Source: Candidatus Bathyarchaeia archaeon
GTDB lineage: Bacteria > Patescibacteriota > Microgenomatia > PFEM01 > JAFGMK01
Direction of reading: 5' to 3'
Assembly: GCA_035529595.1 (NCBI GenBank)
Contig: DATKWK010000017.1
Span: 116,970 to 180,969 of the forward strand
Length of the DNA stretch: 64,000 bases
The notes under the pieces were generated by a model. That model saw only the letters and a list, made by a program, of their open reading frames with translations, did no database searches and was not told the origin of the DNA. Position 1 is the first letter of the stretch. Every line of letters starts with the position of its first letter. Below, one piece after another: positions 1-41,732 of this stretch. A program made the position numbers and the translations under genes.

Positions 1-2466
1 TCTTCAAAAAGAATTGACGAAATTCAGGTGGGTGACATAATTCTAACCCGTGAGGATATTGAATCAACCAGGTTGGTTGAGGCGCGAGTCGAAAAGGTTT
101 TTGTTCATCAGGTTAACGAATATTTATTGGTTAATGGAAATCTGAGAGTAACCCCGGTTCACCGTCTGTTTGTGAATAATCGGTGGCAGATTGCCGGCGA
201 TTTAAAAGTCGGGGATAAACTGGTGGATTATACTGGACAGGCGGTTGAGGTTTTCTCGATCGAGGAAAAGTATGGTTCCTTTAAGGTTTATAACCTGCAA
301 ATTGCCGATTACCGAACTTATTTTGCCAATGGTTTTTGGGTTCACAACCAAAAAGGAAACGGTTTTGAAACGGCCAGAACTGACTTTCCGGCGACCGCTT
401 ATTGGAATCCTCACCTGGAAACTAACGACCAGGGAGAGGTCGAAATTGAAGTTGATTTGCCGGATAATTTGACCACCTGGCGATTGTCGGCAGTGGCGGT
501 TTCCCAAGAAACAGCGGTCGGGTCCGCTGTTCATGAAATTCTAGCTACTAAAGAAGTCTTGATTCGGCCGCTGATGCCGCGGTTTGTAAGCAGCGGTGAT
601 CAGCCTGATTTAGGGGTGATTGTCGTTAATACCAGTGATCAAAACCAAGAGGTGACGGTTAAACTTGAAGGCGAAGGTTTCACCATCGTGGCTAAAAGAG
701 ATCAACAGCAAGTAGTCGGGGTTGGCGGGCAGCAGAAATTTTCCTGGCCGGTTACGGTTACCGCTAAAGATAAAGTCAAGGTTCGATTAAGCGCCGAGGG
801 TAACAGTCAGCAGTTTCAAGATCGGGTTGAACTTGAGCTGCCGGTAGTTAGTTTCAGTACCCCTGAGGTAACGGCGACTTCCGGTGAAGCGGCGGACGTG
901 GCTCAAGAGAAGATTTTTCTTCCGGCTGAGGTCGATCAGACTCAGGGGGCGCTCTCCGTTTCTTTATCGCCTTCGCTTTCAGCCGGCGCCCAGCAGGGGT
1001 TTTCCTACCTGAAGTCTTTTCCTTATGAATGTGCCGAACAAATCGCCAGCCGACTGTTATCAGCCAGTCTTATTTCTCAAGCGATGTCCCAGGCGCAAAC
1101 AGATAAAGCCGGCAATCTGACCCGCCAACAACTGGAAGCAGTTGCCAGTGTGGCCGTCCAGAAGCTTAATAATAGTCAACATCCTGATGGCGGCTGGGGT
1201 TGGTGGATCGAATCAGAAACTGATCCCTTTATCAGCGCTTATGTTTTACAGGCGCTTTGGCAAGCCAACCAAAGTAAGTTTGTTGTTGATCAGTCGACGA
1301 TTGAGAAAACAGCTAACTATCTTCAAGGTCAACTGGCAAGTAGTAGTTCCTACCGATTAACTCTTGATGTCCGGGCTTTTGTCCTTCATGTTCTCAATCT
1401 GACCGGCTTTAAAAACGAAAGTTATCTGACGTCTCTTTATGAAAAACGGTACCAGTTAAACTTGGCCGGCCGGGCTTATCTGGCGATGGCCATGCAGGGG
1501 ACTAATCTTTCCCAGGAGCAAAAAAGAATCTTAGGCGATTTGGTTAGTTTGGTTAAAAAAACCTCAACCGGCAGCCATTGGGAGGAACCAACCCCTGCCT
1601 ATTATTTAATGGGCAGCAACAATACCACCACGGCGGTGATTTTAGAAATGTTGACGATGGTTGATCCTAAGAATCCTTTAATTGATGAGGTGGTTCGTTA
1701 TTTGATGGCTAACAGGTACGAGGGTCATTGGCGCTGTACCCGGGAAACGGCGACAATTATTTTAGGCTTAATGAAACAGTTCTTAACTGCCGGCGAAGGA
1801 AAAATAGATTATGAATATGACGTTACTCTAAATCAAGAAAAAATCTTGTCCGGTAAATTTACCAAGGAAAATCTCTTTGATCTGGTAGAAAAAGAGCTCA
1901 CGATTGGGGAGCTTAAAATCGGTGAAGATAATCCTTTCCAAATCGGTAAAAGCGGTCAGGGGAAACTTTATTACAATTTGGACTTGTCTTATTTCTTGCC
2001 TTTTGAAAAGATTGACGCCCTGGAGCGGGGGATGGTGATTGTCCGGGAGCTGGTCGATAGCCGGGGAAAAGTGCTGAATCAGGAAAAAGTGTCAGCCGGC
2101 CAGGACTACTGGGTTCGGCTTACTGTCGTTGCTCCGCAAGAAAGCCATTACGTGATTATTGAAGATAAATTGCCGGCCGGGTTTGAATCGGTCAATGAAA
2201 GTCTCAAGACGACGAATATTTTAAATGTCGACCGGCCGCCGTTTAAAGAGGAAGCCAACCGTTTCTGGTATTTTAATCACCAGGAGCTGCGTGATGACCG
2301 GACGGTTTTGTTTGCCGATTGGCTGCCCCAGGGAGTTTATGAATACAGCTATCGGGTCCGGGCGACTTTACCGGGCCGCTACCACTATCCGCCGGCTCAA
2401 GTCTACCAGATGTATTTTCCCGATGTCTTCGGCCACTCTTCAGGCGACTGGCTGGTAATCGAATAA
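1..2466 (+). CDS. 5'-truncated alpha-2-macroglobulin family protein with a thioester site, preceded in the same reading frame by a Hint/intein C-terminal domain
   Basis: The reading frame is open from nt 1, so the gene starts upstream of the window. Residues up to nt 348 match intein blocks F/G (KVYNLQIADYRTYFANGFWVHN). Downstream are A2M hallmarks: a TTWRL motif and a thioester-like FPYECAEQ motif, plus beta-sandwich (MG-like) segments. Confidence 0.55.
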   Translation, partial: SSKRIDEIQVGDIILTREDIESTRLVEARVEKVFVHQVNEYLLVNGNLRVTPVHRLFVNNRWQIAGDLKVGDKLVDYTGQAVEVFSIEEKYGSFKVYNLQIADYRTYFANGFWVHNQKGNGFETARTDFPATAYWNPHLETNDQGEVEIEVDLPDNLTTWRLSAVAVSQETAVGSAVHEILATKEVLIRPLMPRFVSSGDQPDLGVIVVNTSDQNQEVTVKLEGEGFTIVAKRDQQQVVGVGGQQKFSWPVTVTAKDKVKVRLSAEGNSQQFQDRVELELPVVSFSTPEVTATSGEAADVAQEKIFLPAEVDQTQGALSVSLSPSLSAGAQQGFSYLKSFPYECAEQIASRLLSASLISQAMSQAQTDKAGNLTRQQLEAVASVAVQKLNNSQHPDGGWGWWIESETDPFISAYVLQALWQANQSKFVVDQSTIEKTANYLQGQLASSSSYRLTLDVRAFVLHVLNLTGFKNESYLTSLYEKRYQLNLAGRAYLAMAMQGTNLSQEQKRILGDLVSLVKKTSTGSHWEEPTPAYYLMGSNNTTTAVILEMLTMVDPKNPLIDEVVRYLMANRYEGHWRCTRETATIILGLMKQFLTAGEGKIDYEYDVTLNQEKILSGKFTKENLFDLVEKELTIGELKIGEDNPFQIGKSGQGKLYYNLDLSYFLPFEKIDALERGMVIVRELVDSRGKVLNQEKVSAGQDYWVRLTVVAPQESHYVIIEDKLPAGFESVNESLKTTNILNVDRPPFKEEANRFWYFNHQELRDDRTVLFADWLPQGVYEYSYRVRATLPGRYHYPPAQVYQMYFPDVFGHSSGDWLVIE

Positions 2467-2497
2467 TCTATTATTGTGTTAGCTTCAGGAGGAGATT

Positions 2498-2749
2498 TCA
2501 CTCTTTGCAAGCTCTTTGCCGGTGAATGATTCGGTAAATAATAATTTTCTTGCTTTTATCGAGTTCGTAAATAATTCGATAAGGCCAGGCACGAAGTGAC
2601 CAAAGACCCTTTAATTTGCCGAGTAATGGTTTACCTGAAAAAGGCTCAGATTGGAGTATTTTTAATTTTTTGATGACTTTTCTTTGTTCTGCTTTGGCAA
2701 GATGAGCGAAGTCGTTTTCAGCTTTTTCGGAAAGAATAATTGTCGGCAT
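2498..2749 (-). CDS. RelE/ParE family type II toxin
   Basis: 83 aa with a C-terminal RAWPYRIIYELDKSKKIIIYRIIHRQ pattern typical of RelE/ParE. It lies immediately downstream of an antitoxin-like gene. Confidence 0.55.
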   Translation of the reverse strand: MPTIILSEKAENDFAHLAKAEQRKVIKKLKILQSEPFSGKPLLGKLKGLWSLRAWPYRIIYELDKSKKIIIYRIIHRQRACKE

Positions 2750-2755
2750 TAGATA

Positions 2756-3022
2756 TTATAGCTGGTATTTTTTCTCAAGTTTCTTAAGAGTAATATACTT
2801 TCCTTTTCTGATTTGCCTCCTGGCTTCTTTAATGGATTTTAAAGCATCAGGAATAGAAAGAACCTCCGCAGTTTCTTCAAGAGATTCAAGTTCTTCAAGA
2901 CTCATAACTACCGCCTTGGGCTTTCCGGAAACGGCAACCACAAACCTTTTTAGTTTCTTTTCTACCTGGCTAATAAAGGTTGGTAAATTGGATCTGAAAT
3001 TAGATATTGCCACTGTTTCCAT
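2756..3022 (-). CDS. Phd/YefM family antitoxin
   Basis: METVAISNFRSNLPTFISQVEKK...VVMSLEELESLEETAEVL is the canonical Phd/YefM N-terminus. The track ORF runs to 3058; the internal Met at 3022 is the more likely start. Confidence 0.5.
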   Translation of the reverse strand: METVAISNFRSNLPTFISQVEKKLKRFVVAVSGKPKAVVMSLEELESLEETAEVLSIPDALKSIKEARRQIRKGKYITLKKLEKKYQL

Positions 3023-3188
3023 TGTCTGTAATGTACGATATTTTGTACAAATTGTCAAGGATTAAATTCTTTACGGACCAAACTTTTGGTTGAAAATATA
3101 AAATACCGCTGTACCGTACCTGTTCCACATTAGGGGTGGAACTTTATTGTCAGTAAAGTAAATTTGACAAAAGCCGTTTTGTATTGTA

Positions 3189-3509
3189 TTGTCATTTACA
3201 ATGAAAGACGCCGCTAAACCTAAACCGGTTAAATTTGATTGGAATGAAGGCAATAAAGAAAAAAATTGGCACAAACACCGGGTTGATTTTCGGGAATGCG
3301 AACAGGTTTTTTTTAATCAGCCGTTAAAAATTTTTTATGATAAAAAGCACTCGCAAAAAGAACCAAGATTTGTCGCTTTCGGGAAAACCGATAAAAACAG
3401 AAAACTGATGATAGTTTTTACTCTCAGAGTAAACAGAATTAGAATTATTTCGGCCAGAAACCAAAGCCGAAAAGAAGGGAAAATCTATGAGCAAAAGCAA
3501 AAAAATTAA
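3189..3509 (+). CDS. brnT: BrnT family (DUF497) ribonuclease toxin
   Basis: FDWNEGNKEKNWHKHRVDFRECEQVF matches the BrnT FEWDxxKxxxNxxKHGVSFEEA signature. It overlaps the downstream antitoxin ORF. Confidence 0.55.
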   Translation: MSFTMKDAAKPKPVKFDWNEGNKEKNWHKHRVDFRECEQVFFNQPLKIFYDKKHSQKEPRFVAFGKTDKNRKLMIVFTLRVNRIRIISARNQSRKEGKIYEQKQKN

Positions 3510-3765
3510 ATCAATTCCCAGATTTGAGAACGAAGATCAGGAAAGGGAATTTTGGGCGAAACATGACGTCACCGATTATCTTGATCAATTCGAACCGATA
3601 GAGTTTGATTTATCGGAATTAAAACCTTCAACGAAGTCGGTAACCATCAGATTGCCTGAGTCTCTTTTGGCCGCCTTAAAAAGTCTAGCTCACCGGAAAG
3701 ATATTCCTTACCAGTCGTTAATGAAGGTTTTTCTGGCAGAAAGAGTTAAGCAAGAATTCCGCTAA
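3487..3765 (+). CDS. brnA: BrnA antitoxin (RHH/CopG-like)
   Basis: A 92-aa protein overlapping brnT by 23 nt. The C-terminal TIRLPESLLAALKSLAHRKDIPYQSLMKVFL is BrnA-like. Confidence 0.5.
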   Translation: MSKSKKIKSIPRFENEDQEREFWAKHDVTDYLDQFEPIEFDLSELKPSTKSVTIRLPESLLAALKSLAHRKDIPYQSLMKVFLAERVKQEFR

Positions 3766-3801
3766 AACAACACCCATCACGAATTAATCTTCAGCCGTAG
3801 C
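3764..3801. repeat. 38-bp direct repeat, copy 1 (aaaacaacacccatcacgaattaatcttcagccgtagc)
   Basis: It starts inside the brnA stop codon. A second copy at 4670..4707 is identical except for a tc/ct dinucleotide swap. Confidence 0.8.
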
Positions 3802-4015
3802 CAGAAATCCATTCCTTTTCTGAAAAAAGACTTGGTAAGTTGACTTGTTTTTTTATCTGAAAGAAAGATTAGATGTCAACCTTTCAAGAAATAATAAATA
3901 CCGGCGTGTCGTATTTGTTCCACATCGGGACGGAAATTGTCTGAGAGTTCTATTTACTTGATCGGGTAATTGTGATTTGAAAAAACTTTGCTATAATAAG
4001 CATCAAGGAGAAAAG

Positions 4016-4255
4016 ATGAATAAACGGATCGAAATCAACCCCCAAGTTTTAGTCGGAAAGCCGGTTATTAAAGGAACCAGAATTCCGGTCTATCTGATTT
4101 TAAATCTTTTAGCTCATGGCTACGACTTCAAACGGATTATCAAGGCCTATCCGATTTTGACCAAGGCCGATATTCGGGCGGCGCTTGAATACAGCGAAAA
4201 GAGACTTAAAAGAGAAAAGGTTTTCCCTTTAAGTTTTAAACCAGTTTCAGGATGA
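4016..4255 (+). CDS. DUF433-family protein (antitoxin-like partner of DUF5615)
   Basis: [30 protein letters not shown] is typical of DUF433. A strong AAGGAG ribosome-binding site precedes the ATG at 4016. Its stop overlaps the next start (ATGA). Confidence 0.5.
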
Positions 4256-4617
4256 TCAAATTTCTTCTTGATGCCAATCTCTCTGTTGAAACAGCCCAAT
4301 TTTTAAGAGACCGGAAATTCAATGTTAAAAGTCTTCTGGAAGAGAATTTAGGCCAAATTTCTGATCAGGAAGTAGCTAAGATTGCTTGTAAAGAAGGTCG
4401 AATTATTATTACTCACGATCTTGATTTTGGGGAAATTTACCACTTCAAGGAAGAAGAAAAGCTAGGTATTTTAATCCTCAGGCTGAAAGACCAAACAGTT
4501 GAAGCCGTTAATAAAATCTTAGGTGAATTTCTTAAAAATAAGATAATTCAAAAACAAAAACTTGATCACTCTTTGATAATTCTTGCTGAAAATTCATATC
4601 GAACCTACAAGTCCTGA
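4252..4617 (+). CDS. DUF5615 / Mut7-C-like PIN-fold putative RNase toxin
   Basis: [11 protein letters not shown]...[11 protein letters not shown] pattern. Translationally coupled to the DUF433 gene. Confidence 0.45.
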
Positions 4618-4669
4618 TAGTAGTATCGCTTTCAGCCTCAATACCGGAGCGGAAGAGACTTAAAAAAAT

Positions 4670-4707
4670 AAAACAACACCCATCACGAATTAATCTCTAG
4701 CCGTAGC
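4670..4707. repeat. 38-bp direct repeat, copy 2
   Basis: Matches 3764..3801. An inverted pair ccggagcgg (4644-4652) / ccgctccgg (4719-4727) flanks it. Confidence 0.8.
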
Positions 4708-4801
4708 TATAAATTAACCCGCTCCGGGTGTTGAGTCTTGTATCCCCTCAGGGTAATTCCTGCCGCAGTTGGCAAGTTTTACCCGTCGGGGAGAAGGTCA
4801 G

Positions 4802-5722
4802 TTAGGGTGGGCAGGGACACCAGTCAGGAAAACTGGTGCCGTAGGTGTCTTCCAGTTCCACGCTGGCCAGATCGGCTTGGGTTGGGCTCGATGCGGTGTG
4901 GAAGAACAGCACTGGCGCCCAGGCCTGGGGGTCGACCACCGTCCAGTGGACATGGAAGTCCACAGCGTCTGCCGGCCTCACGTCCCGGTACCACCCAGAC
5001 ATCATTTGATACTGGAATGGTTGGGATCCGTGAGGGACTTCATCTATCCGTGCCCCTTCCCCGGCTGCGAACCAGACCCTCGTCCAGAGACCGCTCCAGG
5101 GGCCCTCTTCCATTCGAACCGTCAACTTGCCGCCGGTTTCGGAGCCAGACAGCTCTAGATAGTTGGCATTGTCCTGCCAGAAGACCCTCCAGACTAATGT
5201 GTCGCTCCAAGCGGAGGGCGGACCGTCGTCCCACTCACCACGGACCCGAAACCAGAAAGTGCCGAACGGTCGGATTAGGTCGACCCAGTTGTGTCCAACG
5301 AACTGGATTTCCTGCCACGTCTGGCCCTCATCCACCGACTCCTGGAGGCGGAAGTAGTCGAAGATCTCCTCAGTGCTAGGGTCGTAGTACTGCCAGAAAA
5401 GGGATACTTCAGTGGAGCCATTGACATCGTTCCACCACTCCGGCCGCCAGGGGAAGTTCTTTCCCATGAGGGGGAAATAGAGAGTGGTGACTGGCGTAAA
5501 GGTGATAGGCGCGGTGGCGATGGCCACGGGTGTCTCTGATTCGGGCTCCTCTTTGGGACGGACGATCCAGCCTCGCTCAGGATTAACCGCTTCCCATCCT
5601 TCGGGAACGGATGGCGGAGTCGGTTCTTGAGCCGAGGCGTGGGTGCCGCAGAACGCGATGATCACCAGCCCCAGCGGGATGGCGATCGCGGCAACGATGT
5701 TGAGCCATTTTTTCTTGTTCAT
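4802..5722 (-). CDS. secreted Trp-rich FN3-like protein encoded on a GC-rich (foreign-composition) segment
   Basis: The segment ~4740-5720 is visibly GC-rich (~60%) against ~40% flanks. The product MNKKKWLNIVAAIAIPLGLVIIAFCGTHASA looks like a signal peptide, followed by an FN3-like W..Y..YRL/FRV pattern. The start is taken at the Met with the signal peptide. Confidence 0.4.
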   Translation of the reverse strand: MNKKKWLNIVAAIAIPLGLVIIAFCGTHASAQEPTPPSVPEGWEAVNPERGWIVRPKEEPESETPVAIATAPITFTPVTTLYFPLMGKNFPWRPEWWNDVNGSTEVSLFWQYYDPSTEEIFDYFRLQESVDEGQTWQEIQFVGHNWVDLIRPFGTFWFRVRGEWDDGPPSAWSDTLVWRVFWQDNANYLELSGSETGGKLTVRMEEGPWSGLWTRVWFAAGEGARIDEVPHGSQPFQYQMMSGWYRDVRPADAVDFHVHWTVVDPQAWAPVLFFHTASSPTQADLASVELEDTYGTSFPDWCPCPP

Positions 5723-6313
5723 GTGTCTCTCCTGAAGTGGGTTATGTGGCTGACGCTTTCCGGCCAAGCGATTCCTCTTGGAGAATGGGTGACTAGTCCT
5801 TTCCTGATCTTTCCTAAGGATCAAGAAAACGAAATCTCCAAGCTGCCGGAAGCAGAAAGGGTAATATTTAATTAAAAGCCAAAACTGCGACTCACCTCGG
5901 AGGAGCCAAGGTCGTTGCCTTGTCACCGTCCGAGGTGTTTGGGCGCTTTCTTAAAAAGTGCAAAGTTGGAAATTACTCCCTCTGTTTCCGGTAGCTTCAA
6001 AGATTTTTCTCCAAGAAACCCTAGTTAACTGACCATGTCAAAGTGCTTCTTGCCGAAAAGAGCCCTTTTCCGGCTGCTTTAATAGCCGGTCAAGATGATC
6101 TTAACCGCAAGGAAAGAGGGAAATGATTATTCTGTCTTTCCTTATGGTTAAGGCAATCAAAAACAAACCCGGTTTTAGAGGTTTATCTTTTGATCTCTAA
6201 AACAGCCTTATTATAGTTCAAACAAAGCCAAATTACAAGTACTATAGGGTTTTTGAAAACAGCTTTACAATTTATGATATGATATTCTCTAGAATAGAAA
6301 TTCATTTTTTGCT

Positions 6314-6580
6314 ATGGATCAAAAAATAAAACCTGAGAAACCATCCATCAAAGTCGCTGTTCCTGACGTCTTTAAAGCCGGTGTTCATTCCAACGTAGTT
6401 TCCGTGACCTCCACCAGTGATAATGAGGTTATTTTCGATTTTATATTTTCCAATCCCCAAGAAAAGGAAAACGAGATGCGGGTTGGGGTTTTGGTTTCAA
6501 GAGTAGTTTTGCCGACGTCTGTCGCCAATCGTTTATTATCAATTCTTAAAAAACATTTAAAAAAATCTCAAGTTGAGTAA
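6314..6580 (+). CDS. DUF3467-like small protein
   Basis: Resembles the ORF at 17561 (EVIFDF...RVVLP vs LVFDF...RIGMS pattern). The family assignment is from memory. Confidence 0.35.
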   Translation: MDQKIKPEKPSIKVAVPDVFKAGVHSNVVSVTSTSDNEVIFDFIFSNPQEKENEMRVGVLVSRVVLPTSVANRLLSILKKHLKKSQVE

Positions 6581-6585
6581 TATTT

Positions 6586-6813
6586 ATGACCGCTGTTTCT
6601 TATTTCAACATCCAACTTCCAAATTTAAAATTTCATGATCAAACAAGCGATTTTGGTTTAATTATTCAATCAGGTTTTACGCCACCCCAGAAAGAAACCA
6701 AAGATTTATTCGCTCTTATTGAGCATTTAGATATTATTCAAGAATCCCGTGAGTTGATAAAAAAAGGTCAATTTATCACCTGGAAAGATTTTGTTAAAAA
6801 GAATGAGTCTTAA
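6586..6813 (+). CDS. putative antitoxin of a ParE/RelE-type module
   Basis: A 75-aa ORF overlapping the downstream toxin-like gene by 23 nt. No family motif was recognised. Confidence 0.3.
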   Translation: MTAVSYFNIQLPNLKFHDQTSDFGLIIQSGFTPPQKETKDLFALIEHLDIIQESRELIKKGQFITWKDFVKKNES

Positions 6814-7105
6814 AAATGAAGAAAAAACCTATCGAATTATTCTTCCCAGTAAAGGTCGAGGTTTAAAGGAGATAAAAAGGCTTTATAAAAGAAGAGAGAG
6901 ACAAGTAGAAAAGGCGATTAAAAAACTTCAAAAGTTTCCCACAAACATTAGCCAAAAAGGAATTGAAAAACTGAAAAACCCCATTTTTGGCCAATATTCA
7001 ATTCGAGTCGCTGCTGGTGATAGGATATTTTATGATGTTAATAGTCAAACCGGAGAAGTTTATATTTTACGGGCAGGCAAGCACGATATTTACAAGCGAT
7101 TATAG
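6791..7105 (+). CDS. ParE/RelE family toxin
   Basis: KTYRIIL...IKRLYKRRERQVEKAIKKL...NPIFG...YSIRVAAGDRIFYDVNSQTGEVYILRAGKHDIYK matches the ParE/RelE fold pattern. Confidence 0.5.
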   Translation: MLKRMSLKNEEKTYRIILPSKGRGLKEIKRLYKRRERQVEKAIKKLQKFPTNISQKGIEKLKNPIFGQYSIRVAAGDRIFYDVNSQTGEVYILRAGKHDIYKRL

Positions 7106-7717
7106 ATTGATCCTCAAAAGATCGGTGTAAATCGGGCCTTGGGGAGTCAGTTGGCTTTTAATCAAAGCGACTTGGTTGATTTGAAACGACCATTTTCCCG
7201 GCAGTTGGAACTGGCTTAAAAACCGGCCGAACTCCTTTTTTTGCCCTGGCTTTATTTTTCGCAAACGGGCGATAGTTAGATGCGGGATAAAGGGTTTTGA
7301 ATCAAAAGGAATTTTTTCCTGATTAAGTTTTTCTCTTATTTGGCTATTGATCAGATTTATTTTTTCAATTTCTCCGGTCAAGCCGATCCAAATGATTTTG
7401 GGGAAATCCGGGTTGGGAAAGGCGCCTAACGGGGTTAGTTTAAGTTCAATTGAACTATTCACCTCAGAGGAGTCATGGTTTCTCCGCCGACTGGCGGATT
7501 CAGCCTGACACCTACGAGGTGTTAGGGTATTTTTCATAAGCTTGGCAGTTAGCTCCGCTTGTTCAGGGCTGATATCGGCAAAAAAAATCAGGGTCAAATG
7601 CAGATTTTGTCTTTTAACCCAGGTTGCCTTTACTCCTTTCTGCCGGAGCTGATTCTGGATTTTCTCGAGCCGGTCTTTAATTTTTTCCGGGATTTCTAAA
7701 GCAATAAAAGCTCTCAT
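7100..7717 (-). CDS. thpR: RNA 2',3'-cyclic phosphodiesterase (2H phosphoesterase, ThpR/LigT)
   Basis: Two H-x-T-x motifs (HLTLIFF and HLTIARL). A ~25-aa GC-rich insertion lies between the two halves. Confidence 0.6.
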   Translation of the reverse strand: MRAFIALEIPEKIKDRLEKIQNQLRQKGVKATWVKRQNLHLTLIFFADISPEQAELTAKLMKNTLTPRRCQAESASRRRNHDSSEVNSSIELKLTPLGAFPNPDFPKIIWIGLTGEIEKINLINSQIREKLNQEKIPFDSKPFIPHLTIARLRKIKPGQKKEFGRFLSQFQLPGKWSFQINQVALIKSQLTPQGPIYTDLLRINL

Positions 7718-18593: not shown

Positions 18594-18769
18594 AAAACGG
18601 GCAATAAAAAAATCTGAGCCTTTTGGCTCAGACTACCAATAGTATATCACAAAAAGTCAAAATTGAGCAAAAATGGAAGTAATCTCAGGATGAGATTTTA
18701 GTGGAACTTGTCTGTTTGACTGACTAGGAAATGACGACTGATTTGGTAAAAACTGACAGATTTAACTTG

Positions 18770-41005: not shown

Positions 41006-41596
41006 ATGAGTTTTTTTGATTTTCTAGTTTCTGGTTCTGTATTCCTAAGCCTTTTAGCGCTAATTTTTTATGGTTCTGTGTGGTTGCTAAAAGAAAGCAC
41101 CAAAAAGTTATTAGAGAAAGAACTTGAGAAGCATAAAAATAATCTGTCCAAAGAGCTAGAAGTTTACAAAAAAGAAATTGATCTTAGCTATCGACATCAG
41201 TTAAGTCTTCAAGATAGAAGCAGAAAGCTTTTTGAAGAGTTTTCAAACTCACTAGAGGAAATTTACAAAACGAAAGGGGATGAATTATCACTCAGGTTAA
41301 ACAAGCTCTTTGGACTTTTGGCCCTTTACGCACCTGACAAAGTTTATAGGGTCTTGAGAAAATCCTTGGACGGGAAGGCACTACCTAATGAAGTAAAGCC
41401 TCCGATATATTTTGCTTTAAGAAAATCACTTTTTGGTGCCAAGTCAAAGCTAAAAGAGGGCGATTTGATTAAACATATTAAGGCTAAAAGATTAATGCTA
41501 AAAGATAGATACTTATTAAGTAGACATTGGCTAACTTCAGATATACCGATAAGATTTTTCCACACCCGATGTGGTTTTCTCAATACCGATGTATAG
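41006..41596 (+). CDS. hypothetical membrane-anchored coiled-coil protein
   Basis: N-terminal transmembrane segment and a Lys/Glu-rich coiled coil. The ORF reads through repeat R3. Confidence 0.3.
   Translation: MSFFDFLVSGSVFLSLLALIFYGSVWLLKESTKKLLEKELEKHKNNLSKELEVYKKEIDLSYRHQLSLQDRSRKLFEEFSNSLEEIYKTKGDELSLRLNKLFGLLALYAPDKVYRVLRKSLDGKALPNEVKPPIYFALRKSLFGAKSKLKEGDLIKHIKAKRLMLKDRYLLSRHWLTSDIPIRFFHTRCGFLNTDV
41561..41580. repeat. 20-bp direct repeat R3
   Basis: Followed 40 bp downstream by an inverted partial copy, ccacatcgg. Confidence 0.8.
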
Positions 41597-41732
41597 TATC
41601 TGCGCCACATCGGCTGTGGAGACGCTTAAGTTCGGCTAACATACAATTTATTGCACTATGACACAAAAAATTCGAATATACACTAGTTAGGCGATATATT
41701 ACTTAAGAAATTATCGAGATGTTAATGTAAAG

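Follow-up and report, generated by a model that had tools for sequence, protein, structure and literature searches.

How did three unrelated toxin-antitoxin (TA) gene pairs come to lie side by side, and why is the third of them enclosed by a direct repeat? These questions are raised by a locus within a 64-kb stretch of DNA, which we analysed as a whole and refer to as the window.

Three adjacent TA modules and their surroundings

Profile searches, as proposed in a preliminary description of this DNA, bore out its view that three unrelated TA gene pairs stand next to each other: the coordinates were correct (Table 1), and all proteins passed the Pfam gathering scores of their families, namely ParE/RelE with Phd/YefM, BrnT with BrnA, and DUF433 with DUF5615. 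In module 1, the toxin reached 47 bits against PF05016 (cut-off 23), with NCBIfam RelE_StbE and YoeB matches that were both below their own cut-offs, and the antitoxin reached 55 bits against PF02604 (cut-off 29.8) as well as an above-cut-off match to NCBIfam TIGR01552 phd_fam. Judged by these domains and by the adjacency of the genes, module 1 is a predicted type II TA system composed of a RelE/ParE toxin and a Phd/YefM antitoxin. BrnT and BrnA of module 2 scored 88 bits (PF04365) and 99 bits (PF12441), respectively, the NCBIfam BrnA match (2.5e-11) being below its cut-off. The toxin gene comes first, its ATG lying 9 nt 3′ of a promoter-like site, and gene overlap and domain content together mark the pair as a putative type II BrnT/BrnA system. 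The proteins of module 3 matched PF04255 (81 bits) and PF18480 (76 bits); its toxin has 92 homologues, the nearest at 74%, and residues D38, D56 and D58 are invariant in 35 homologues. Module 3 is accordingly classed as a probable type II pair of a DUF433 (COG2442) antitoxin and a PIN-like DUF5615 toxin. Pairwise coupling of the genes, which had been claimed for all three modules, holds as an overlap for brnT/brnA (23 nt) and DUF433/DUF5615 (ATGA at 4252); yefM and parE are separated on one strand by a 6-nt gap. A shared CCGGAGCGG/CCGCTCCGG palindrome was considered as an operator of the DUF433/DUF5615 family and rejected: apart from the window, an exact-motif scan located it close to the module in just one other locus (L014). 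By eye, a further locus, L011, carries a one-base variant of this palindrome.

Table 1 Features of the TA array and of its convergent neighbour (positions in the window)
Feature	Position	Strand	Details
Module 1 toxin, RelE/ParE superfamily	2498-2749	minus	Pfam ParE_toxin 3e-12
Module 1 antitoxin, Phd/YefM	2756-3025	minus	Pfam PhdYeFM_antitox 1e-14
B1, copy of a dispersed ~50-nt intergenic element	3094-3144	plus	hairpin GTTCCAC-N7-GTGGAAC
Promoter-like site of brnTA	3164-3192	plus	TTGACA-17-TATTGT
Module 2 toxin, BrnT	3201-3509	plus	Pfam BrnT_toxin 7e-25
Module 2 antitoxin, BrnA/CopG type	3487-3765	plus	Pfam CopG_antitoxin 3e-28
Repeat copy A1, putative truncated copy of terminator arm	3763-3808	plus	starts in brnA stop
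Inferred 860-bp insert, between A1 and A2	3809-4668	plus	linker, B2, promoter, DUF433, DUF5615, 51-nt tail
B2, second B copy, within the insert	3889-3938	plus	32 nt upstream of module 3 -35 box
Promoter-like site of module 3	3970-3997	plus	TTGTGA-16-TATAAT with TG extension
Module 3 antitoxin, DUF433 (COG2442)	4016-4255	plus	Pfam 6e-23
Module 3 toxin, DUF5615 PIN-like (Mut7-C type)	4252-4617	plus	Pfam 3e-21
U arm	4637-4653	plus	inverted copy of 4719-4735; alternative 16-bp stem around A2
Predicted intrinsic terminator of orphan gene	4659-4733	minus	hairpin 4733->4674, then UUUUAUUUUUUUAAG (4673->4659)
Repeat copy A2	4669-4714	plus	in minus-strand reading: U-tract start, whole 3′ arm, loop, 9 nt of 5′ arm
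Orphan gene, 306 aa	4802-5722	minus	N-terminal signal/TM segment; convergent on TA array

Further claims about the surroundings fared unevenly. Of a supposed fourth ParE-type pair beside a DUF3467 gene, the DUF3467 gene was confirmed (6314-6580, 6e-10); the toxin at 6791-7105 gave only sub-threshold YoeB/RelE-superfamily matches (TIGR02116 1.6e-7, 31 bits against a cut-off of 51.8; PDB YoeB 1e-3), and the presumed antitoxin (6586-6813) matched no family. The locus had also been portrayed as a defence or mobile-element island, a view that was not supported: PADLOC returned no match for 10 island proteins, and the precomputed annotation of window positions 1-55.8 kb contains no mobility gene. 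The foreign-composition DNA said to adjoin the array does exist, as a high-GC block (0.55-0.62) spanning about 4650-5850. Here lies an orphan gene (GC 0.55-0.62), whose protein found only itself among 5.8e9 proteins and has no Pfam match.

The direct repeat and the hairpin of the orphan gene

The direct repeat reported to flank module 3, at a length of 38 nt, is real and does enclose the module; its full length, however, is 46 nt, with 42 of 46 positions identical (91%) between the copies A1 and A2. Its edges are abrupt, in-register similarity being absent past either one, and its onset within the brnA stop codon could be confirmed, at the T of TAA. The left part of the repeat is an exact 28-mer and the right part has diverged. 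At up to three mismatches the 38-mer occurs exactly twice in the 64 kb, the expectation from 100 shuffles being 0, and a search for further copies, likewise suggested beforehand, returned only the same two in the window plus 6.5 kb upstream (locus L007, also scanned, is within the window). The GC jump directly after A2, and the exact 28-mer in both copies, might be taken to signal an artefact, either similarity by chance or misassembly around a short repeat. Such an artefact is extremely improbable, given that none of the 100 shuffles yielded two matches, that the copies differ at 4 positions, that 14 kb agree at 100% between the JGI and Logan assemblies, and that past the orphan gene the low GC of the same genome resumes. 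Several known kinds of repeat were considered as well. The differences between the copies are not adenine-specific and a reverse transcriptase is absent, which argues against a DGR template/variable repeat; a CRISPR-like repeat was rejected on the grounds of just two copies, 860 bp apart; and Rfam gave a chance-level match only, elsewhere in the region.

A2 overlaps a predicted hairpin downstream of the orphan gene. As minus-strand RNA, the segment 4620-4760 folds at -51.3 kcal/mol (z -5.5, 0/200 shuffles), while the isolated hairpin 4660-4745 reaches only -18.7 kcal/mol as plus-strand RNA, and 5 of the 8 differences between the hairpin arms are G.U-compatible on the minus strand alone. The stop codon at 4802 precedes the hairpin by 69 nt, and the 15 nt past the hairpin stem include 11 U. 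With a stable stem-loop, a U-tract and a gene upstream on the same strand, the hairpin 4674-4733 is thus a candidate rho-independent terminator. On this structural prediction, A2 is part of the orphan gene's terminator and A1 a truncated copy of it, fused to the brnA stop. As A would be a piece of the terminator hairpin, it is 46 nt of local target sequence that would flank the 860 bp in between. This speaks against the repeat as the end of a mobile element, A belonging to the neighbour's hairpin. The 9-bp inverted pair noted around A2 also exists and is in fact about 16 bp long (4637-4653, CTCAATACCGGAGCGG; 4719-4735, CCGCTCCGGGTGTTGAG).

Could A instead be a functional RNA or DNA element, such as a terminator half, an sRNA or a protein-binding site, that is kept twice by selection or gene conversion, so that no insertion has to be invoked? 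All 4 differences between A1 and A2 fall within the apical stem, and two of them turn Watson-Crick pairs into G.U, so that a 9-bp minus-strand mini-hairpin is kept. Nevertheless, significant structure is present only with A2: in its own context A1 folds no better than shuffles on either strand, and it lies 20 nt from the nearest minus-strand U-run. A plus-strand terminator role was rejected for both copies, the folds being weak and a U-tract absent, and no Rfam family was matched. Further, abrupt edges and a start within the brnA stop codon suit a duplication junction better than a conserved element, and the family-wide bracketing described below requires no such element. We therefore regard maintenance of A without insertion as very unlikely.

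Origin of the module 3 cassette

The 860 bp between the two copies contain the promoter, DUF433 and DUF5615 only, without a mobility gene. In the nearest relative, L011, homologous DNA (3970-4610 against 911-1551 of L011, 72.5% identity) starts at the -35 box (3970) and stops shortly before the toxin stop (4610), and the flanks are not homologous. Modular acquisition of module 3 had been proposed before, and its own promoter, the bounding repeats and the restriction of L011 homology to the cassette support it, unlike the site-specific route put forward with it, to which we return below. The alternative proposal, insertion of everything downstream, finds no support in a repeat that encloses only 860 bp with module 3.

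The reading that we favour, with a probability of about 0.6, is that the module 3 cassette inserted between brnA and the orphan gene and thereby duplicated 46 nt of its target, that is, insertion with long target duplication (ILTD). It draws on what was observed: a repeat with sharp edges that coincides with part of a strand-specific predicted hairpin, a conserved cassette of defined extent, and other loci in which the arrangement recurs. As in ILTD, the direct repeat exceeds 30 bp, the insert is smaller than 20 kb and holds a whole module without a mobility gene, and the repeat is local target sequence near a neighbour's start or stop (the brnA stop and the predicted orphan-gene terminator). 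We infer the insertion and its direction, because an empty-site relative was not found: 5/5 contigs with an identical BrnA share the same neighbours, the collections searched contain no close relative, and a search for the toxin in plasmids, aimed at annotated empty sites, gave no match. Among VanW-anchored GTDB loci, three distant relatives show synteny confined to the far (SBP) side of VanW, where they lack a TA array. Both A and a second repeated element, B, are absent from relatives' loci. With an orphan gene that has no homologue, A2M homologues of at most 39% identity and synteny only on the SBP side, an empty site was not obtainable.

Mechanistically, a promoter-antitoxin-toxin cassette of ~860 bp would have entered the short tail-to-tail spacer of brnA and the orphan gene, its target being the orphan gene's intrinsic terminator, of which 46 nt were duplicated. 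A2 is still joined to the other hairpin arm, so that the terminator would have stayed intact, and A1 would preserve the brnA stop codon, leaving both neighbours undamaged. The route is the least certain part. We favour a Campbell-type single crossover with a circularised fragment that carried the cassette and a copy of the target; widely staggered breaks followed by repair would be an alternative. Either way, host recombination functions would act and no cassette-encoded recombinase would be involved. The expected empty-site junction would read GAATTCCGC-TAAAACAACACCCATCACGAATTAATCTNNAGCCGTAGCNANAAAT-TAACCCGCTCCGGGTGTTG, and an excised circle or deletion product ...GAGACTTAAAAAAA-[46-mer]-CCATTCCTTTTC. 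Recombination between the flanking repeats would normally delete the insert, a loss against which an addictive TA pair would select; the persistence of scars of this type next to addiction modules would thereby be accounted for. Tandem TA arrays would be built by repeated insertion at one target.

When the empty site was rebuilt from the brnA 3′ end, one repeat copy and the sequence from 4715 onward, the same hairpin formed with either repeat variant. The present U-tract (UUUUAUUUUUUU) is better than that of the rebuilt site (UUUUAGCGG), and the supposed insert, through its right end, thus contributes to terminator quality. At that end, the U arm is an inverted target copy, which a simple insertion does not predict.

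Element B adds a second repeat to the array. B1 and B2 give a local alignment score of 35, compared with a maximum of 30 in 1000 shuffles, and they interleave with the copies of A in the order B1-A1-B2-A2; two simple insertions would be insufficient to produce this order unless B2 arrived with the cassette. Alternatively, both plus-strand modules might follow one recurring frame, B - promoter - TA - A, arisen by tandem duplication of one unit with subsequent cargo replacement or by array exchange via the short homology arms B and A. The significant similarity of B1 and B2 (0/1000 shuffles), the interleaving at similar periods (795 and 906 nt) and the position of each B copy 20-32 nt upstream of a -35 box (20 nt in the case of B1 and brnT) are consistent with such a frame. 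However, a third B copy detected by nhmmer (41575-41623) has no adjacent TA gene, the B copies are only ~75% identical compared with 91% for A, and the remainder of both units cannot be aligned. In addition, 70 kb contain no further B...A units, and A is part of the neighbour's predicted terminator rather than a free-standing cassette end. We consider a repeated frame unlikely.

Site-specific recombination would treat A as an att- or attC-like site, at which an integrase, or a recombinase of the Xer type, would have acted in trans from another locus to mobilise an integrase-less module. A small insert between direct repeats of tens of bases does resemble attL/attR, the pattern of an identical 28-nt left part and a diverged right part recalls a core with arms, and TA cassettes are common in chromosomal integrons. 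Against this stands the precomputed annotation, which lists no integrase or transposase domain within 10 kb or in window positions 1-55.8 kb; the sole tRNA of the window, tRNA-Cys at 18769, is far from the locus. A1 lacks the second hairpin arm needed by attC, and the R′′/R′ boxes (RYYYAAC/GTTRRRY) are unmatched by eye. No third copy of A was found, a 23-nt core of the repeat had 0 matches in metagenome and viral collections (one exact-match query), and the repeats of 12 other events (see below) share neither sequence nor junction motif. The site-specific insertion proposed in the preliminary description is thus quite unlikely. For the same reasons we rejected an integron cassette array and, with an insert that consists of the TA pair only, integration at an integrase-dependent or tRNA-derived att site; dif-like half-sites, as expected of an Xer/dif-like site, were not seen by eye.

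Recurrence in the family and comparison with known systems

The ILTD reading gains from other members of the family. Of 66 testable metagenomic DUF433/DUF5615 modules, 14 have flanks that share a direct repeat of 25 nt or more, compared with 4/119 pseudo-modules of the same loci (Fisher p 1.6e-4, the control windows not being mutually independent); loci L021, L023 and L024 represent one event. In an earlier run with 700-nt flanks, 0/145 pseudo-modules taken from housekeeping DNA had bracketing repeats. Flanking repeats in direct orientation, specific to each locus, are thus statistically enriched in this TA family. Across the 14 modules the bracketing repeats measure 25-494 nt and are often host coding sequence. 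By local alignment, 14 loci have repeats of 41-262 nt that are again locus-specific, often cover the start or stop codon of a neighbour and are 71-97% identical; as identity falls short of 100%, either the events are old or the donor DNA had diverged. Most of these loci hold 676-904 bp between the copies (860 bp in the window and in L052), and copy 2 begins 0-8 nt past the toxin stop in 5 of them. In L017, two unrelated TA modules, Phd/PIN and DUF433/DUF5615, occupy one target, a glycosyltransferase 3′ end, of which a second copy lies between them; L021 lacks the Phd/PIN unit, the only with/without comparison analogous to an empty site. L011 has three TA modules with the core AAAAGCCTGATCTT after each.

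More tentatively, and with confidence somewhat short of even, we suggest that type II TA cassettes (promoter, antitoxin and toxin) of ~0.7-0.9 kb may spread without a recombinase via ILTD, that repeated use of one target may build tandem arrays of unrelated modules and that addiction may keep the scar. If true, this would extend ILTD, so far described only for restriction-modification (RM) systems, to RNase-type TA modules. It would also shift the probable cause from cleavage by the nuclease of the module to a host-encoded mechanism or plain selection for keeping the insert. In the literature, we found no report of ILTD for TA modules. For the window by itself the result is modest: the genome is Patescibacteria-like, the TA cluster is ordinary, and it bears what appears to be one well-preserved insertion scar; across the family, a dozen or so independent loci present a recombinase-less cassette amid duplicated local sequence.

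Movement of chromosomal TA modules and their tandem arrays are usually ascribed to hitch-hiking on plasmids, phages, integrons and transposons. Integron attC cassettes and pdif modules resemble the window in their small, promoter-bearing TA units in tandem and their hairpin-related repeats; the window differs in lacking an integrase, a conserved recombination site and a complete A1 hairpin, and its repeats vary by locus (for pdif, the comparison draws on general knowledge and inspection by eye). IS1549, reported in 1998, is said to generate unusually long target duplications on insertion, similar to what we propose here. Insertion sequences of this kind encode their own transposase by definition, whereas the insert in the window encodes a TA pair only.

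As to cargo, PIN-COG2442 (DUF433) pairs such as Synechocystis VapBC10 (PMC3834315) share domains, gene order and stop/start overlap with module 3, and TA pairs of this type were predicted by Makarova et al. 2009 (PMC2701414). The module 3 toxin belongs to the DUF5615/Mut7-C branch.

The nearest system is ILTD of RM systems (Nobusato et al. 2000, Gene 259:99; Furuta, Abe & Kobayashi 2010, PMC2853133), for which ILTD was defined and in which the repeats often cover start or stop sites; in two H. influenzae cases, 46-bp repeats reach 2-15 bp into the 3′ end of the gene upstream (PMC2853133). Both RM ILTD and the window feature a small addiction-type unit without a mobility gene between locus-specific direct repeats of >30 bp, and the ILTD repeats are target copies that often cover a neighbour's stop or start, so that no gene is broken. 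Unlike RM systems, which cleave DNA, the cargo in the window is a type II TA pair whose PIN-like toxin is presumably an RNase; this undercuts the suggestion that double-strand breaks made by the restriction enzyme itself drive ILTD. The window further differs in its target, a predicted terminator hairpin, and in having no empty-site genome. If general, the mechanism would offer a concrete route, open to testing, by which TA modules spread and their arrays grow. It would bring TA and RM systems together as addiction modules with one insertion signature, and would weaken the idea that DNA breaks by the restriction enzyme cause this signature. In practice, flanking direct repeats could mark the limits of TA cassettes and help to date the insertions.

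Direct repeats around the third module

The six small open reading frames of the array form three pairs and all pass their Pfam gathering scores; NCBIfam agrees for YefM/Phd, for BrnA below threshold and for RelE/YoeB at superfamily level. The preliminary description of three unrelated toxin-antitoxin (TA) pairs is confirmed by Pfam. The genes of two pairs overlap: brnT and brnA share 23 nt, and DUF433 and DUF5615 share ATGA; between yefM and parE there are 6 nt. DUF433 (COG2442)-PIN pairs such as module 3 are an accepted TA type, predicted in 2009, and one of them, VapBC10 of Synechocystis, has been studied experimentally (PMC3834315). For a proposed fourth ParE-type pair (6586-7105), the DUF3467 neighbour is confirmed; the toxin (6791-7105) is YoeB/RelE-superfamily by sub-threshold scores only, and its 75-aa upstream partner, which has no family match, may represent a new family of antitoxins that pairs with a YoeB-like toxin. 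This pair showed no bracketing repeat.

Features of the TA array and recurrent elements (window positions unless a metagenomic locus is named)
Feature	Position	Strand	Basis
ParE/RelE-type toxin	2498-2749	minus	Pfam, above gathering score
Phd/YefM antitoxin	2756-3025	minus	Pfam, above gathering score
Repeat B1	3094-3144
BrnT	3201-3509	plus	Pfam, above gathering score
BrnA/CopG antitoxin	3487-3765	plus	Pfam, above gathering score
Repeat A1	3763-3808
Putative insert	3809-4668
Repeat B2	3889-3938
DUF433	4016-4255	plus	Pfam, above gathering score
DUF5615, PIN-like (Mut7-C type) protein	4252-4617	plus	Pfam, above gathering score
U arm	4637-4653
Repeat A2	4669-4714
Terminator outer arm	4719-4735
Orphan gene	4802-5722	minus
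Third B copy	41575-41623
CTG(C/A)TATAATTGCCCC copies, L045	753-770, 4014-4031
CTG(C/A)TATAATTGCCCC copies, L046	2688-2710, 3157-3175, 4375-4397, 5800-5822, 7069-7091, 7640-7657

The 38-mer noted on both sides of module 3 occurs exactly twice in 64 kb at up to 3 mismatches, and two matches were found in no shuffle. The proposed direct repeat is borne out and lengthened from 38 to 46 nt, with 42 of 46 positions identical between the copies (A1 and A2) and abrupt edges on both sides. On the minus strand, RNA of 4620-4760 folds into a long hairpin (-51.3 kcal/mol, z -5.5, 0/200 shuffles), whose stem spans 4733 to 4674 and is followed directly by UUUUAUUUUUUUAAG. Since hairpin and U-tract lie 69 nt past the stop codon of the orphan gene, a high-GC gene convergent on the array, they are its predicted intrinsic terminator. 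On the plus strand the isolated hairpin (4660-4745) reaches only -18.7 kcal/mol, and of eight arm differences five pair as G.U in minus-strand RNA but are A.C mismatches in plus-strand RNA. A2 takes in the beginning of the U-tract, the 3' arm in full, the loop and 9 nt of the 5' arm. A1 lacks a partner arm, and on neither strand does its surrounding sequence fold better than shuffles. Repeat A is therefore a duplicated target sequence, not the end of a mobile element. All four A1-A2 substitutions sit in the apical stem, two of them turning Watson-Crick pairs into G.U, so that an empty site reconstructed from the brnA 3' end, a single copy and the sequence from 4715 on gives the same hairpin whichever variant is used. 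The U-tract is at present longer than in this reconstruction. We infer insertion of the cassette between brnA and the orphan-gene terminator.

Extent and setting of the cassette

The nearest DUF5615 homologues (69-74% identity) are located in other TA arrays. With the closest, at metagenomic locus L011, DNA homology (72.5% identity) begins at 3970, the -35 hexamer of the predicted module 3 promoter (TTGTGA-16-TATAAT), and ends at 4610. The flanks of the two modules are unrelated, and both A and a second repeat, B, are absent from the relatives' loci. On this comparison the conserved unit is promoter, antitoxin and toxin, which sits within the 860-bp segment bounded by A1 and A2. Modular acquisition of the third module, as first proposed, finds support in substance; its site-specific nature does not.

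B1 and B2 (about 75% identity, 0/1000 shuffles) each precede the -35 box of a plus-strand module by 20-32 nt, and the third copy lies away from any TA gene, after a terminator-like hairpin (41560-41574). Element B, ~50 nt long, is intergenic and dispersed (letters common to the copies: AATACCG..TG...GTA..TG..CCACAT..G); a scan of 2300-7300, which spans B1 and B2, found no Rfam match, and the copies show no convincing shared fold. Given the interleaved order B1-A1-B2-A2, B2 must have come within the insert unless a cassette-frame model holds, an alternative that draws on the same interleaving and that we consider improbable. Arrival of B2 within the insert suggests a donor from the same lineage. 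At the insert's right end, the U arm (CTCAATACCGGAGCGG) is an inverted copy of the terminator outer arm (CCGCTCCGGGTGTTGAG); together they form an alternative 16-bp stem with A2 in its 65-nt loop, and this stem dominates the plus-strand centroid fold. It could be a plus-strand terminator for DUF433/DUF5615, or a mark left by the insertion mechanism.

The window derives from a 385-kb contig (JGI 3300031539 Ga0307380_10000013), and an independent assembly of the region from SRR8554643 is 100% identical over 14 kb. The genes present are bacterial and resemble those of Patescibacteria (PBP1, FemAB, VanW, GroEL, LytR), the nearest VanW (58% identity) coming from a Ca. Paceibacterota MAG. Although the MAG is named 'Candidatus Bathyarchaeia archaeon' at NCBI, the contig is closest to Patescibacteria MAGs; probably the name is an error or the bin is mixed. 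The TA cluster is flanked by an alpha-2-macroglobulin gene and LigT/VanW, and the sole tRNA of the window is at 18.8 kb. The reading as a mobile or defence island finds no support: no protein of the cluster has a PADLOC match, and the annotation of 1-55.8 kb records no integrase or transposase domain.

The GC block at about 4650-5850 (0.55-0.62 vs ~0.43 for the genome) is the orphan gene, a 306-aa secreted-type ORF with no homologue among 5.8 billion proteins. Next to the L011 array, too, lies a convergent high-GC orphan gene for a lipoprotein (2730-3302, minus), unrelated in sequence, with its own terminator (minus-strand hairpin and T8, about 2598-2665). The alpha-2-macroglobulin gene (2232 aa; 28-2466 and on beyond the window's upstream end; L001 2282-8980) carries a mid-gene PT-HINT domain (PF07591), an intein-like insertion whose C-terminal part is encoded by 28 to about 357. 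Its best homologues reach only 39% identity and the named ones are mostly from Chloroflexi-type MAGs, which suggests a horizontal origin.

Bracketing repeats across the DUF433/DUF5615 family

Self-comparison of 80 loci encoding DUF5615 relatives, fetched from a metagenome scan, found many modules bracketed by direct repeats. By blastn-short between 1-kb flanks (E <= 1e-3, length at least 25 nt), 14 of 66 testable modules were bracketed; among pseudo-modules placed in other parts of these loci it was 4 of 119 (Fisher p 1.6e-4). With 700-nt flanks, an earlier run bracketed 0/145 pseudo-modules in housekeeping DNA; pooling these controls, which differ in flank length, gives 4/264 (p 8e-8). L021, L023 and L024 amount to one event, which leaves about a dozen independent ones. 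Aligned locally, the window and 14 of the metagenomic loci gave repeats of 41-262 nt at 71-97% identity, which differ from locus to locus and are often host coding sequence, such as a glycosyltransferase 3' end (L021/L023/L024) or gene 5' ends including the ATG (L033, L070, L075). The copies are separated by 676-904 bp in most aligned loci and by exactly 860 bp in L052 and the window, and in five loci copy 2 begins 0-8 nt past the toxin stop. In two low-GC loci, L014 and L052, the duplicated target likewise holds terminator-like hairpins. The junctions of bracketed loci share no common motif.

In L011, HicBA, DUF433/DUF5615 and MazE/PIN follow in succession, each then followed by a copy of another short repeat (core AAAAGCCTGATCTT). 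L017 has a glycosyltransferase C-terminus, a Phd/PIN module, a second C-terminus copy and a DUF433/DUF5615 module; L021 is colinear with its second half and lacks the Phd/PIN unit. By its gene order, L017 appears to show iterated insertion.

Other loci carry further repeats. A 72-nt sequence with an in-frame stop, apparently the 3' end of a gene, occurs three times in L026 (721-792, 1246-1317, 1647-1719), with small ORFs between; this looks like iterated insertion with target duplication and a cargo other than DUF5615. In L012, a 26-40-nt copy of the tRNA-Leu(taa) 5' end (6473-6512) lies immediately behind a DUF433/DUF5615 module and 147 nt upstream of the complete gene (6636-6722), and may be a further scar of a small duplication or insertion. 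L025 has ~120-nt MITE-like repeats, tandem and dispersed, beside its module (4179-4537, 5351-5503), and a promoter-like motif, CTG(C/A)TATAATTGCCCC, recurs at intervals in the low-GC loci L045 and L046, both of which carry a DUF433/DUF5615 module.

Proposed mechanism and relation to known insertions

Under the favoured route, a circular fragment of cassette and target copy would have been integrated by host recombination, a single crossover producing exactly this structure; alternatively, repair of widely staggered breaks may have been involved. That the copies differ in many loci is compatible with either an event long past or a donor that had diverged. Recombination across the repeats would remove the insert, a loss that addiction would penalise. 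As a TA cluster the window locus is ordinary and bears a well-preserved insertion scar; recurrent scars of this type can account for the build-up of tandem TA arrays.

Judged from sequence, module 3 and the family pattern are probable cases of insertion with long target duplication, in which small addiction modules without a mobility gene are flanked by long, variable and locus-specific target duplications, often across a neighbour's start or stop codon. The window has a repeat >30 bp and a small insert holding the whole module, and no mobility gene. This mode was described for restriction-modification (RM) systems (Nobusato et al. 2000; Furuta et al. 2010, PMC2853133), and two of the cases, from H. 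influenzae, have 46-bp repeats that overlap the upstream gene's 3' end (PMC2853133). A 2014 review of RM and TA systems mentions it for RM only (PMC3874152), the TA survey of Makarova et al. (2009) does not mention flanking repeats, and a full-text search of limited literature found no report for TA modules. A scar type previously tied to RM systems thus recurs across the DUF433/DUF5615 family. Whereas Furuta et al. proposed DNA breakage by RM enzymes to underlie such insertions (PMC2853133), here the same scar surrounds a PIN-like toxin that is presumably an RNase, which argues for a host mechanism and selective retention.
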